Source: Anaerolineae bacterium | GTDB lineage: Bacteria; Chloroflexota; Anaerolineae; S016-19 | Reading direction: 5' to 3' | Assembly (NCBI GenBank): GCA_015486235.1 | Contig: WFSD01000163.1 | Span: 1-39,875 of the forward strand | Length of the DNA stretch: 39,875 bases | Shown here: positions 9,214 through 37,919 of the stretch, in pieces | How positions within the stretch are numbered: position 1 is the first letter of the stretch | Layout of the letters: each line of letters starts with the position of its first letter | Notes under the pieces: generated by a model | What the model was told of the DNA's origin: nothing | Database searches by the model: none | What the model saw: only the letters and a program-made list of their open reading frames with translations | Made by a program: the position numbers and the translations under genes

Positions 9214-9300
9214 AGGGATTAGGGGACAGGGGTTAGGGGGTAAGTACTGCCTTTTGCTCCCAGGAGCCCTTTCGCGCCTAACCCCTGTTCCCTAGCCCCT
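9214..9300. repeat. Heptamer-periodic inverted repeat overlapping the GT2 3' end
   Basis: Left arm AGGGATT-AGGGGAC-AGGGGTT-AGG (9214-9237); reverse complement of right arm 9277-9300 matches at 21/24. Confidence 0.8.
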
Positions 9301-17144: not shown

Positions 17145-17272
17145 TCACCGCAAAGCTCGCGGAGTTCGCAGAGAACATTGAAAAGCCGTTAGCAGTTAGC
17201 CGATAGCCGGTAGCGGCCCTTGCCTCTTCAGCATTTTTCATGCTGACAGCTATCGGCTGCCGGCCATCGGCT
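17145..17272. repeat. Composite element: 9-mer-periodic TCACCGC arm plus heptamer inverted arms
   Basis: TCAC-CGCAAAGCT-CGCGGAGTT-CGCAGAG, then (AGCMGNT)n at 17184-17214 and its inverse at 17242-17272; shares AAAAGCCGTTAGCAGTTAGC with the 31544 element. Confidence 0.8.
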
Positions 17273-20403: not shown

Positions 20404-20465
20404 TGAGTACGCTCCTTAGATGCTCACAGTGTTGACATCGGGAAAATGCATTTCCAATATCCTGA

Positions 20466-20490
20466 GTAGGGGCAGGACTTGTGCCTGCCC
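20466..20490 (+). repeat. GTAG-type REP palindrome
   Basis: GTAG-GGGCAGG-ACTTGTG-CCTGCCC. Confidence 0.7.
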
Positions 20491-20517
20491 AGAGATGCAA
20501 CATCTGTTCGGCGGGTC

Positions 20518-21072: not shown

Positions 21073-21240
21073 CGTTCCACCTCTCGCCGATGTCCCGACG
21101 GCATCCCAGGTGCAGACAGGGAATCCGACGTTAAAAATGTCAGTAGGCCACACGAAATAAGGGCGTTCGAAAACTCCATTTATCATAAGTGCCGAATGAA
21201 TTGGTGACGCTCAAAACCGGTGGGATGGCGCTGCTTTTGG

Positions 21241-21292
21241 CCCTCACCTACCCCAACCCCTCCCTCTCCCGCTGGCGCAGGCGAGGGAAGGG
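21241..21292. repeat. CCCTCACC..CCCTCTCCC-type palindromic element
   Basis: Pyrimidine-rich arm CCCTCCCTCTCC pairs imperfectly with GGCGAGGGAAGGG. Confidence 0.5.
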
Positions 21293-21351
21293 CTGACAGC
21301 GGCTGCTTGCGAGCGCTTGCTCTTTCCAAACGGAGAAAGAGCTGCATAGGC

Positions 21352-21404
21352 TTGTAGGGCGGACTGTTAGTCCGCCCTTGCGAGCCAGACGGCTCGCCCT
21401 ACAA
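21352..21404. repeat. Inverted doublet of GTAG REPs (REPIN-like)
   Basis: TTGTAGGGCG...CGCCCTACAA termini; internal hairpins GGCGGACT-GTT-AGTCCGCC and GCGAGCC-AGAC-GGCTCGC. Confidence 0.75.
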
Positions 21405-21420
21405 TTCCTGCTGACCCCAA

Positions 21421-21470: not shown

Positions 21471-21597
21471 TCACCGCAGAGCCCGCATAGCAAATCAACG
21501 AACGAATCAGCAAAACGAATTGCTCCGGGAGAATCTTATCGTTGATTCGCTTGATCGCCCATTCGCTGGTTTTGAACCTCCTCGTTCTCGGCGGTGA
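21471..21597. repeat. Nested palindromic element copy 1 (octamer arms)
   Basis: TCACCGCAGAGCCC...CTCGGCGGTGA shell; RCGAATCA-type arms and inverse TGATTCGC arms. Confidence 0.9.
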
Positions 21598-25542: not shown

Positions 25543-25628
25543 CTTCTCTCCTCGTCAAACTCCAGGTAGCACCACACACCACCGCGGTGCTGACTCCTCT
25601 TCTTCAATAACTGTTCAGGGGTAATTTA

Positions 25629-25751
25629 TCACCGCAGAGCCCGCATAGCGAATCAACGAATGAACAAATCAGCGAGACGAACTGCTCCGGGGGAATCTTA
25701 TCGCTGATTCGCCCATTCGCTGGTTTTGAACCTTCGCTTCCTCGGCGGTGA
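25629..25751. repeat. Nested palindromic element copy 2 (octamer arms), between rpsK and rpsD
   Basis: Closely similar to 21471-21597 including the TGCTCCGGG.GAATCTTATCG core. Confidence 0.9.
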
Positions 25752-26192: not shown

Positions 26193-26273
26193 AATACCTC
26201 CTGATGATCTACATTTCTCCGTCGGTTTCCGTAACCGTTCAGCCTGATAGCATCTTTTCTAAGATGGGCTTTC

Positions 26274-26389
26274 TCACCGCAGAGTCCGCCACAACGAATC
26301 AACGAATGAGCGGATCGGTGGAACGGACCGCTCAAGGGAAGTTTCACCGCTGATTCGCCGGTTTTGACTCTCCGCTCTCTCGGCGGTGA
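26274..26389. repeat. Nested palindromic element copy 3, between rpsM and rpsK
   Basis: TCACCGCAGAG..ACGAATCAACGAATGA..TGATTCGC..CTCGGCGGTGA. Confidence 0.88.
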
Positions 26390-26979: not shown

Positions 26980-27112
26980 TCACCGCAGAGCCCGCCGCAA
27001 CGAATCAACGAACGAGCGAATCAGCGAAACGAACCGCCCCAGGGAAGTCCCACCGATGATTCGCTTGATTCGCCGATTCGCTGATTTCGACTCCCTGCAT
27101 GCTCAGCGGTGA
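26980..27112. repeat. Nested palindromic element copy 4, between map and rpmJ
   Basis: TCACCGCAGAGCCC..ACGAATCA/GCGAATCA..(GATTCGC)x3..CTCAGCGGTGA. Confidence 0.88.
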
Positions 27113-27142
27113 ATCCTTCTCCCCGTCCGCGCTGCCTGAACG

Positions 27143-27889
27143 CTACTTCGTAAAAATCTCCGGCCCGTTCTCGGTGATGGCGATGGTATGCTCGAAATGG
27201 GCAGAAAGGCTGCCATCGGCGATGACCACCGTCCAGCCATCTTCGAGAACGCGGGTTTCGTAGGAACCGGCAGAAACCATAGGCTCTATGGCTATGGTCA
27301 TCCCCGGCCGCAGCCGCACCCCCGTTCCTGGACGACCGTAGTTCAGCACCTGAGGATCCTCATGCAATTTACGGCCTATCCCGTGCCCGGTGTACTCGCG
27401 GATCACGGCAAACCCGTTGGACTCCACGTAGTTCTGAACGGCCGCAGAGATGTCTCCCAGATGCCCTCCAGCGACGGCGTTCGCTATACCAGCCTCCAGG
27501 CTACCTTTGGTAACGTCCAAGAGACGCTGCGCATCCGGCGAGATCTTCCCCACCGGCAGCGTGATGGCGGCGTCGCCATACCAGCCCTTGTAAATCGAAC
27601 CGACGTCCACCGAGACGATGTCGCTCTCCTTGAGCACCCTCTTGCGAGAGGGTATCCCATGCACCATCTCGGTGTTGATCGAAGCGCATATGGTCGCCGG
27701 GAACCCGGCGTATCCCTTGAAAGCGGGCTTTGCCCCTTCTCTGGCGATAATCTTCTCCGCCAAATCGTTGAGCTCCGCCGTGCTCACCCCTGGTTTGACG
27801 GCATCCCGCATGGCGTCCAGCACCATGCCCACGATGTGCCCTGCATGGCGCATCAATTCCAGCTCATACTTAGCTTTAAGGACAATCAT
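27143..27889 (-). CDS. map: Methionine aminopeptidase type I
   Basis: CASIN..VHGIP, D.G...GWYGD, GHGIG..LHEDP, EPM and AHFEHT. Confidence 0.97.
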   Translation of the reverse strand: MIVLKAKYELELMRHAGHIVGMVLDAMRDAVKPGVSTAELNDLAEKIIAREGAKPAFKGYAGFPATICASINTEMVHGIPSRKRVLKESDIVSVDVGSIYKGWYGDAAITLPVGKISPDAQRLLDVTKGSLEAGIANAVAGGHLGDISAAVQNYVESNGFAVIREYTGHGIGRKLHEDPQVLNYGRPGTGVRLRPGMTIAIEPMVSAGSYETRVLEDGWTVVIADGSLSAHFEHTIAITENGPEIFTK

Positions 27890-31104: not shown

Positions 31105-31470
31105 TCAGAAATCCAAACCGGCTTCGCGGGCCGCATCGGCCAGGGCTTTCACCCTGCCGTGAAACTTGTAGCCGCCGCGGTCGAAGACCATCTGCTTCAT
31201 CCCCAGGGACAAAGCCCGCTTCGCTACAAGCTTGCCAACCTCTTTAGCCTGCTCTGTTTTCTTCTTCCCTTCCATTGCCCCTCTGATTTCAGGATCAAGC
31301 GTGGATGCAGACACCAGAGTCTTCCCCTCCACGTCATCGATTACCTGAGCATAAATGTGCCTCGAGCTTCGAAACACATTCAGACGTGGGCGCTCAGGGG
31401 TACCGAACACCCGCTTGCGCACACGAAGATGCCGCTTCCTGCGGGCTTCACTTCGGCTCGATCGAGCCAT
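31105..31470 (-). CDS. rplR: 50S ribosomal protein L18
   Basis: [13 protein letters not shown] and [21 protein letters not shown]; ATG with GGAGG RBS. Confidence 0.97.
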
Positions 31471-31543
31471 CGCGCTTCCACCTCCATGAAAATTTCCCAG
31501 GCCAAACCCCCTGGTTAGCCTAAACACCCCTGAAAAGCATTCT

Positions 31544-31689
31544 TCACCGCAGAGCCCCTCAAAAAGCCGTTAGCAGTTAGCAGTTAGCAGTTAGCAGTCA
31601 GCCGTAAGCCGATAGCAACAGGATTTTCGCAAAAGCTAACGGCTGCCGGCTAACGGCTATCGGCTCTCTCCCCGCGTACTCCGCGGTGA
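31544..31689. repeat. Nested palindromic element copy 5 (heptamer arms), between rplF and rplR
   Basis: Same TCACCGCAGAGCCC...CTCCGCGGTGA shell, but inner arms are seven AGCMGTT-like units (31565-31613) and four inverse units (31635-31665). Confidence 0.9.
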
Positions 31690-31696
31690 GTCTCTC

Positions 31697-32242
31697 TCAC
31701 TTCTTGCCGGCCTTGCCCGCTTTCATCCGGATGTGCTCGCCAACGTAACGGATCCCCTTCCCTTTGTACGGTTCGGGTGGTCTGATCTTCCGGATCTCAG
31801 CGGCGGTCTGCCCCACCATGGCTTTGTCGTTCCCATCCACAGCGATGACCCGCGCCGACTTGTCAACGCTGAGCTTGATGCCGGGCCTGGGCACCACCCT
31901 CACAGGGCTGGAATAGCCAACGCTGATCACCAAAGTGTCCCCGTCCATCTGGGCGCGGTACCCCACGCCGACGATTTCCAGCTTTTTCTGGAATCCTTTG
32001 CTGACGCCGGCGACCATGTTAGCGATCAGGGCACGGGTAAGGCCGTGCAGGGCCCGGTAAGTTCTGCTGTCGTTTGGCCTGGAAACGACGACCTGATCCC
32101 CCTCCTGCTTGATTGTCAGGCCGGGATCGAAAGTCCAGCGGAGATCTCCCCGTGGCCCTTTCACCACCACCTCATTGCCGGCCCCTACTTTCACCTCCAC
32201 CCCTGGCGGGATGAGCACAGGCGTTTTCCCTATTCGAGACAC
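31697..32242 (-). CDS. rplF: 50S ribosomal protein L6
   Basis: MSRIGK, GVGYRA and RPPEPYKGKGIRY. Confidence 0.98.
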   Translation of the reverse strand: MSRIGKTPVLIPPGVEVKVGAGNEVVVKGPRGDLRWTFDPGLTIKQEGDQVVVSRPNDSRTYRALHGLTRALIANMVAGVSKGFQKKLEIVGVGYRAQMDGDTLVISVGYSSPVRVVPRPGIKLSVDKSARVIAVDGNDKAMVGQTAAEIRKIRPPEPYKGKGIRYVGEHIRMKAGKAGKK

Positions 32243-37403: not shown

Positions 37404-37635
37404 TGCAACCACGAATATTGCAACCACGAATTACACGAATTACACGAATTGCACAAAGCTACACGAGTTACACGAAACTGCACGAATTGCACAAAACTGC
37501 ACGAACTACACAGAGCTACACAAATTGCACAACGCTGCACGAATTGCACAAAGCTACACGAACTGCACAGAGCTACACGAACTGCACAGAGCCACACGAA
37601 TTGCACAAAGCTACACAAATTACGCAAATTACACG
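37404..37635. repeat. Tandem 9/10-nt satellite with a 19-bp higher-order period, between rplW and rplB
   Basis: 21 full T(A/G)CAC-core units at 37432-37629; 37450-37620 is nine consecutive [10-mer + 9-mer] pairs. Confidence 0.92.
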
Positions 37636-37919
37636 CCTTCGAATATGGTGATGGACTCATCAGGTTCCAGGGTTATGATCGCTTTCTTCCACCCCGGCTT
37701 CCGCACGGATATCCGCCTCCCATATCGCTTTCGCTTGGAAGGCATGTTGATGACCCGCACATCCACCACATGGACCTCGAAAACTTTCTCTATGGCTTCC
37801 TTCACCATCCTCTTGTTAGCACGCTTGTCAACCTCGAAGACATATTGGTTGTACTCGTCCTGCAGGTGGTCTGCCTTTTCGCCCATTATGGGCCTTTTCA
37901 GGACTTCGTAAACATTCAT
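37629..37919 (-). CDS. rplW: 50S ribosomal protein L23
   Basis: LKRPIMGEK, YVFEVDKRANK and WKKAIITL; ATG with GGAG RBS. Confidence 0.96.
   Translation of the reverse strand: MNVYEVLKRPIMGEKADHLQDEYNQYVFEVDKRANKRMVKEAIEKVFEVHVVDVRVINMPSKRKRYGRRISVRKPGWKKAIITLEPDESITIFEGV

Follow-up and report, generated by a model that had tools for sequence, protein, structure and literature searches.

The window, a stretch of 39,875 nucleotides that corresponds to contig C163 of an Anaerolineae genome (G000), carries the S10-spc-alpha ribosomal operon on its minus strand. A composite hairpin element lies in the spacer between the ribosomal protein genes rplF and rplR (Table 1). Read from 31544 on, its layout is TCACCGCAGAG-CCCCTCAAAA-AGCCGTT-(AGCAGTT)x3-AGCAGTC-AGCCGTA-AGCCGAT-AGC, followed by the loop, the inverse 7-mer arm and a closing arm. 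The 7-mer hairpin (interior) is held between the two arms of another repeat (shell), and shell arm A, the first on the mRNA, begins 7 nt past the rplF stop codon, which is TGA in G000 and TAA in the sister genome G002. Contigs of run X1, which may be the source sample, tile the element with zero mismatches. The mRNA strand of the element folds at -73.4 kcal/mol (z -4.1), a stability reached by none of 200 shuffled sequences. Against an expectation of 0.82, the window contains 12 copies of the shell word, and none of 100 shuffles had as many. No promoter or terminator pattern was found at the element, and Rfam at gathering threshold gave no match in the window.

Table 1. Positions of the composite element, its parts, its host genes and related copies in the window
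Feature	Position	Strand	Remarks
Composite hairpin element, 146 bp	31544-31689		rplF-rplR spacer; read base for base
A-rich spacer CTGAAAAGCATTCT	31529..31543	+	extends the shell in one subfamily
Shell arm B, shortened	31544..31564	+	terminal TCACCGCAGAG and linker
Heptamer arm, 7.6 units	31565..31616	+	AGCAGTT run locally expanded; TRF period 7
Loop, 18 nt	31617..31634	+	
Inverse heptamer arm, 4.4 units	31635..31665	+	TRF period 7
Shell arm A, two 9-mer units, 24 nt	31666..31689	+	GCGGTGA end
rplF (50S protein L6)	31697..32242	-	host gene upstream
rplR (50S protein L18)	31105..31470	-	host gene downstream
Second shell and heptamer copy	17145..17272	+	left shell arm complete with three units, right one lost
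Shell and octamer copy	21471..21597	+	after rpsI
Shell and octamer copy	25629..25751	+	rpsK-rpsD spacer
Shell and octamer copy	26274..26389	+	rpsM-rpsK spacer
Shell and octamer copy	26980..27112	+	map-rpmJ spacer
IS66-type terminal repeat remnant	25607..25618	+	beside the 25629 copy
IS66-type terminal repeat remnant	26231..26242	+	beside the 26274 copy; motif scan
Degenerate IS66-type terminal repeat	27136..27146	-	over the map stop codon, beside the 26980 copy; read by eye, unscored by the motif scan that covered the other ends

A preliminary description of this DNA had reported that the element shares its outer sequence with shells that enclose octamer arms. Re-reading bears this out: the first 14 nt are common to the element and the copies at 21471, 25629 and 26980, the 26274 copy is one base off, and the GCGGTGA end and the heptamer interior are exactly as given. 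It overlooked the second heptamer composite (17145-17272, left shell arm only), the orthologue of which in G002 is almost unaltered, and the remnants of IS66-type ends beside three of the four octamer copies of the window. The A-rich spacer CTGAAAAGCATTCT also stands 5' of a heptamer copy of G000 (C30) and of an octamer copy of G002 (L080).

The neighbouring spacers differ between the genomes of the genus. At rpsK-rpsD, G002 holds a complete IS66-type MITE whose shell has a non-periodic interior. The rpsM-rpsK copy and G002 L037:13500-13610 are the same element, but the inner loop has opposite orientations with respect to the shell, as recombination between the inverted arms would produce. The map-rpmJ site is empty in G001, G002 and G003. 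At the 3' end of map (27143-27160), where a MITE end overlaps the stop codon, the final codons of G000 and G002 differ sharply (8 mismatches in 30 nt).

Shells, interiors and the transposon layer

A catalogue of G000 made by profile searches (E up to 1e-5) contains 50 heptamer and 44 octamer hairpins, counts that are slightly inflated by near-duplicate copies across contigs (C65/C185/C439, C12/C193, C66/C176). Both shell arms are present in 10 of the heptamer hairpins, one arm in 14 and none in 26; the corresponding figures for octamer hairpins are 14, 3 and 27. By chance, a shell arm is met in 0.5% of 80-nt windows. Facing pairs of the shell word 50-300 nt apart number 26 in G000 and none in the reversed genome; 14 enclose an octamer interior, 10 a heptamer interior and one a non-periodic interior (C99), and one is probably due to chance. 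Shell-only, interior-only and composite forms are all present, and gradual intermediates between 7-mer and 8-mer arms were not seen in the G000 catalogue. These hairpins without a shell arm, together with the interior-free shells and one MITE family that carries two interiors between identical flanks (see below), support the earlier view that shell and interior are separable modules.

The same description had raised the possibility of a shell/interior junction at a fixed nucleotide, which does not hold. Offsets from the shell end are family-specific on side B: 37-39 nt, or three 9-mer units, in 12 heptamer copies other than the present one, 29-30 nt in 3 and 20-21 nt in 5 (21 in the element at 31544), compared with 18-20 nt in 14 octamer copies. 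On side A, 9 of the 17 heptamer copies and 12 of the 19 octamer copies have an offset of 24-25 nt.

Within each family the loops of shelled copies are alike and those of free hairpins are not (median local score 20 vs 12; 20+21 heptamer and 17+23 octamer loops were extractable by pattern). This indicates that the composites were amplified as units and that the free hairpins arose separately. The copies in the window, which had been read as separate swaps, thus probably descend from few amplified masters, likely one 7-mer and one 8-mer that were spread by the MITE, and are not independent events. The 18-nt loop of the element is likely a deletion derivative of the loop of about 33 nt common to shelled heptamer copies. 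The shelled heptamer copies of G000 and G002 have the same orientation to transcription at 19 of 20 co-directional junctions (octamer copies, 13 of 18), which is unusual for a repeat spread by a transposon.

Many shells are enclosed by a MITE with the ends GTAACTGTTCAG...CTGAACAGTTAC. G000 and that part of G002 which was sampled gave 13 pairs of such ends, 10 with a perfect 8-bp duplication and 6 with an enclosed shell. In G000, 18 of 41 shelled copies (7 of 24 heptamer, 11 of 17 octamer) have an end no more than 150 nt away, against 1 of 53 unshelled ones (0 of 26 and 1 of 27); the background is 2.2%. The ends match those of PF03050 elements (L383, L387, L388, L390, L391) within 0-2 mismatches. 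One of these, L383, is a 1,445-bp single-transposase element of the class with matching ends and an 8/8 duplication; its NCBIfam IS66 score, taken over the domain alone, is 165, the cut-off being 180. PF03050 occurs in 12 of 101 class genomes, and no such transposase was found in G000-G003, which are fragmented and 92-98% complete. By its terminal repeats and 8-bp target duplication the composite family belongs to the IS66/ISBst12-type MITEs, and since such ends and duplications bracket shelled composites, transposition in trans would have spread them. Exact copies of the MITE end are highly amplified in two genomes of the class, with 63 in G070 and 36 in G098, and likewise in G002 with 45.

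The copy at 31544-31689 itself has neither ends nor duplication of its own: no MITE end lies within about 170 nt and no direct repeat of at least 6 nt flanks it, so its transposon history is deduced from its likeness to the family. Three of its neighbours in the window keep one end. The shell was also considered as a transposable unit with its own duplication and rejected, because it has no flanking repeat and the duplications belong to the outer MITE.

Genes bracketed by the arm words

The shell, too, is a periodic hairpin, built of 9-mers, and represents a nuclease cassette in gene-less form, from which the gene would have been lost. Its arms match those flanking GxxExxY genes (TIGR04256/PF13366): they bracket both sides of 5 of the 29 GxxExxY loci of the class, and one stands 5' of the GxxExxY gene of G002 (L375), directly past the host stop codon. 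The stronger arm has a period of 9-10 at 13 of the 16 GxxExxY loci that scored (29 examined). Arms are complementary at 14 or more of 18 nt at 28 of 29 GxxExxY loci and 26 of 28 loci of the four-helix-bundle genes described below, against 30 of 150 mismatched pairs. The two GxxExxY genes of G000 itself are broken and have other arm words.

When 185,579 genomes were scanned with the three-unit shell arm, at least 121 loci in many phyla were matched. Among the matches listed, 70 loci close into a hairpin within 300 nt (loops of 11-214 nt), one of these 70 closed shells has a 7-mer hairpin with a different word nested in it, and 2 of 121 loci lie near a GxxExxY motif, 41 having short flanks. By an ORF test, no GxxExxY gene was closed inside both arms among the matches listed (at least 121).

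The protein model of GxxExxY (pLDDT 96) has a PD-(D/E)XK-type fold, with D64 and K76 invariant and E74 near-invariant. Its best fold match is Cas4 SSO0001 (Z 8.0, rmsd 3.7, 97 aligned), one of many similar matches and generic in kind; a search of PDB sequences with the GxxExxY profile gave no match. The fold comparison gave no specific match to a Holliday-junction resolvase: Hjc reached Z 6.4 and was tied with many others. From its predicted fold, the GxxExxY protein would be the obvious candidate for a cutter.

A second outer family, starting CCTAACCTGGACGAGCCAGAACC, has a variant of the 9-mer shell with at least four interiors (AGCCGTC 7-mer, GGGGTTA 7-mer, GCGAATCA 8-mer and CACAGAT 9/10-mer). 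It is found in G000 (C62, C68, C74, C83, C110, C133, C319, C326, C418, C420) and G002 (L058, L071, L080, L114, L145, L154).

The words of the interior match the arms of a different gene, that of a four-helix-bundle protein (TIGR02436/PF05635). Such genes are bracketed by AGCCG-type 7-mer arms, the word family of the element's own heptamer arm, in G001 (L369) and G017 (L321), and by GCGAATCA 8-mer arms in G002 (L373) and G003 (L374). The last two cassettes are 76.5% identical, share the arm word and occupy different gene junctions. The stronger arm at four-helix-bundle loci of the class has a period of 7 in 23 and of 8 in 3 of the 26 that scored (28 examined). One junction, which from the gene sequences we take to be cas6-cas1-like, holds different cassettes in the four genomes of the genus: a GGGGTTA-armed gene in G003, that gene plus an additional AGCCGTT arm in G000, an AGCCGAT-armed gene in G001 and a GCGAATCA-armed gene in G002.

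These links came from the search of the genus. A metagenome scan for an octamer arm with a ribosome-binding site gave 23 loci, with no four-helix-bundle gene evident. At five metagenome loci (L359, L362, L364, L365, L367), a purine-rich octamer array stands singly, its inverse arm absent, and takes up the space from a stop codon to the ribosome-binding site that follows; what is presumably the same cas6-cas1-like junction is among them. Gene-less loops were compared with cassette loci as possible remnants of the cassette genes; BLAST gave no match, so the gene-loss step is without a direct trace. The notion that the arms provide stop codons in all frames was likewise dropped: it is true for AGCCGTT, AGCAGTT, AGCCGAT, GGGGTTA and GCGAATGA, and false for GCGAATCA and the 9-mer on the sense strand.

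Replacement of interiors between related copies

Three genomes of the genus were compared with G000: G002 (mean identity 92.4%, 257 of 364 fragments), of which 70% was sampled, and G001 and G003 (about 75% in rplF). Swapping of interiors is real, and the incoming interior replaces resident DNA and is not inserted into the loop. Between L149 and L162, two MITE copies of G002, the initial 82 nt and the final 77 nt are 100% identical and the interiors differ; each copy has a duplication of its own. In L149 an octamer hairpin has replaced the third 9-mer unit together with the old loop, which argues against the clean insertion into a loop proposed at first. Both interiors are present in runs of two other studies; in run X2 the octamer path has a depth of 66, the common flanks 159-196 and unique DNA 16-18.

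The rplF-rplR spacer is empty in G001 and G003, holds the shell with the 7-mer interior in G000, and has octamer arms from the stop codon on in G002, the allele of which contains a 100-N gap; G002-type junctions are also present in run X2. In the pair C83/L154, outer sequence and shell variant are the same and the interior is either the GGGGTTA 7-mer or an 8-mer. At C46:3429 (C46:3429/3767) and C12, 7-mer and 8-mer hairpins alternate without any shell and with both flanks intact. REP-like hairpins alternate with periodic hairpins at the same sites.

For a systematic count, 663 orthologous co-directional spacers were used, 26 of 689 rows having been removed because one G002 spacer matched several G000 junctions. 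The repeat type was the same in 15, flagged as different in 9 and present in a single genome in 15 and 16. Inspection by hand reduced the 9 to 7, as C163:13473 is the same family with its loop inverted and C147:2287 is ambiguous; C46:1161 and C12 look like further swaps and were excluded from the 7. The 7 hand-checked swaps, rplF-rplR included, exceed the 0.8 expected from all spacers, 1.5 from those of at least 40 nt and 2.5 from diverged spacers only (p 3e-6 to 4e-3), an excess that vanishes (p 0.12) when the junctions open to insertion are assumed to number only about 100.

The last 30 nt of the upstream gene diverged more at 21 changed junctions (0.113), a set that includes diverged copies of the same family and two paralog-mismatched rows, than at 487 stable ones (0.060-0.067; p 0.009). 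The stop codon was changed at 8 of the 21 and 30 of the 487, respectively. Further upstream no clear rise was seen at changed junctions.

Mechanism, alternatives and known systems

We favour, somewhat above even chances, a nest of gene-less elements in which 7-base arms sit in 9-base arms and a MITE amplified the whole, the inner hairpins being swapped when DNA cut close to a stop codon or hairpin is repaired by copying another cassette. Such a course would begin with arm words that each bracket a small gene of their own, as they do elsewhere in the genus or class, and loss of the gene from between the arms would leave a gene-less hairpin. An incoming hairpin would then overwrite part of a resident one, as seen in one family and presumed for the rest, giving subfamilies with their own junctions. 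IS66-type ends and 8-bp duplications, which bracket the intact shelled composites, would mark the step of amplification. The copy at 31544 may have arrived at the rplF-rplR spacer or been converted into its present form there; its MITE ends would have been lost, arm B and the loop shortened, and AGCAGTT expanded by slippage. The cut would be made by the putative PD-(D/E)XK nuclease of the GxxExxY family and the copying done by host recombination. By folding out of the mRNA, the long stem would let the operon tolerate the insert.

The main competitor, a serious one that we regard as possible though less likely, needs no dedicated swap enzyme: several kinds of hairpin would insert independently into a few tolerant spacers, and ectopic gene conversion through shell or MITE homology, template switching at palindromes and allelic exchange among strains would shuffle the interiors. 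A small set of tolerant junctions would explain the overlap of sites, and REP-like hairpins share those sites with periodic ones. The periodic shell arms provide microhomology, one side of the junction (24-25 nt) is nearly common to both families and L149, and at rpsM-rpsK a loop has been inverted between its arms. However, the shell-less swaps at C12 and C46:3429/3767 exchanged hairpins without mutual homology and kept both flanks, and new arms often start at the stop codon with the last codons changing along. The loops of free hairpins are unrelated, so these hairpins are not copies of a few donors, and related cassettes with the same arm word stand at different gene junctions.

A host regulatory RNA of the spc operon (a processing site, an attenuator or a protein-binding array) kept for its function is improbable. 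It would suit the stable fold, the 19:1 orientation of shelled heptamer copies relative to transcription and the placement of most copies between co-directional genes, but 81% of all junctions are co-directional anyway, the site is empty in G001, G003 and other class genomes examined and filled with a different repeat in G002, and neither the Rfam search of the window nor the search of the element for terminators and promoters produced a match. Least probable, and largely refuted, is the shell as a sequence-specific landing pad whose loop 7-mer and 8-mer cassettes enter at a fixed base: the same shell does hold several interiors (7-mer, 8-mer, non-periodic; four kinds in the CCTAACCTGGACGAGCCAGAACC outer family) and its side A junction is nearly constant, but side B junctions vary by family and copy, resident DNA is removed, over half of the interiors are shell-less and swaps occur at shell-less sites too, G001 and G003 carry octamer and heptamer words with no facing shell-word pair among the matches listed, and elsewhere 1 of 70 closed shells among the matches listed holds a periodic hairpin.

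A wider reading, held tentatively and with more doubt than belief, is that the four-helix-bundle and GxxExxY cassettes form a distinct class of mobile elements. They would target the stop-codon ends of genes and resident hairpins, overwrite without target duplication and hide in the mRNA by the pairing of phased arms; competing 7-, 8-, 9- and 10-mer alphabets would oust one another from shared junctions, and MITEs would be secondary carriers of the nests that result.

Some 23S rRNA genes contain ORF-bearing intervening sequences in which a PF05635/TIGR02436 four-helix-bundle protein is enclosed by a long stem. The protein family and a stem that could fold the gene out of the transcript are common to both systems; however, the cassettes described here stand in mRNA spacers, as the 31544 element does between rplF and rplR, have tandem 7/8-mer arms, are mostly gene-less and change between sister species. 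The arms lack the short GTAG-headed palindrome typical of REP sequences. REPIN/RAYT elements and BIME mosaics, in the accessible text of PMC3116915, are similar in being gene-less extragenic hairpins of about 100-150 nt with a link to a cognate gene and higher-order composites; here, in contrast, arms are tandem-periodic and replacement prevails over tandem clustering.

The outer layer on its own is ordinary. ISDge4 of the single-ORF ISBst12 group of IS66 is described, in the accessible part of PMC12898284, with a GTAACTGCTCAGCA end and an 8-bp repeat; GTAAC..TCAG ends, 8-bp duplication and the single transposase of full-length relatives such as L383 agree. That group covers only the layer that the 31544 copy has lost, and periodic arms and replacement are outside IS66 biology. 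Ssn nucleases with NTS/SRM hairpins resemble our cassettes, as far as the available text of PMC11893778 goes, in the small single-domain nuclease gene bordered by a hairpin repeat peculiar to it, the many gene-less copies throughout the genome and the raised sequence diversity beside repeats. However, Ssn proteins are GIY-YIG nucleases with short non-periodic hairpins, whereas the genes within the arms here are TIGR04256 and TIGR02436, and GxxExxY is a predicted PD-(D/E)XK protein whose gene lies between phased, mutually pairing arms of 9-10-mers. In T-even phages, free-standing homing endonucleases ("intronless homing") are, in the sections of PMC2988022 consulted, likewise nuclease cassettes between conserved genes that alternate at one site and co-convert flanks. 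Those phage cassettes lack repeat arms, cut at a great distance from where they insert and pass from allele to allele; the present elements also occupy unrelated junctions and are dominated by gene-less forms, and the raised divergence is limited to the last 30 nt and the stop codon. Intergenic heptamer repeats of Beggiatoaceae, Xanthomonas and Nostoc are 7-mer runs between co-directional genes, often over stop codons; the available portions of PMC4679880 and PMC4692102 do not link them to armed gene cassettes or swapping, and the terms "four helix", "intervening" and "23S" are absent from that of the former. On the features tested, the inner layers fit none of the compared systems.

The accessible text of a recent preprint (bioRxiv 10.64898/2026.10.21.760802) does not contain "four helix", "heptamer" or "intervening", and its supplements could hold such clusters; one legend in the part of PMC10910872 that was available mentions a 23S rRNA IVP near CRISPR. 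In the openly accessible partial texts covered, no description of armed cassettes or of their cut-and-copy replacement was found. Within the same partial texts, none naming TIGR02436 was found and GxxExxY appeared only in isolated mentions.

The locus ties together three things that are unexplained, namely the abundant intergenic repeats of 7-9 bases, the GxxExxY nuclease and the "IVS protein" with its four-helix bundle, linking all three layers in one genus and adding a before/after pair within one family. Such natural pairs, in the two-interior MITE family and in the spacers of two species of about 92% identity, define breakpoints and candidate substrates, and the role of both widespread proteins thereby becomes testable. 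If the nuclease does drive hairpin-directed replacement at stop codons, this would be a new route for DNA to spread inside essential operons.

Further repeats lie in the window. The rplW-rplB spacer (37405-37646) contains, from the rplW stop codon, a 19-bp tandem array of 10.4 copies with CACGAAT-type 9/10-mer units; G002 has about two units and G001 and G003 none, and the word resembles the arms of other GxxExxY loci (L313). At 9214-9300 there is a gene-less GGGGTTA-type heptamer hairpin, and the same word arms a four-helix-bundle gene in G000 (C124) and G003 (C107). A further family after rpsI (21189-21420), with hairpins headed GTAGGGCG and CCCTCACC, has dozens of matches in G002 and G003, and a block similar to it is present in the secY-adk spacer of G002 and absent in that of G000. 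Two related 43-nt palindromic repeats of the GGGCAGGCACAAG type, at 100-142 and 20451-20493, stand in opposite orientation.
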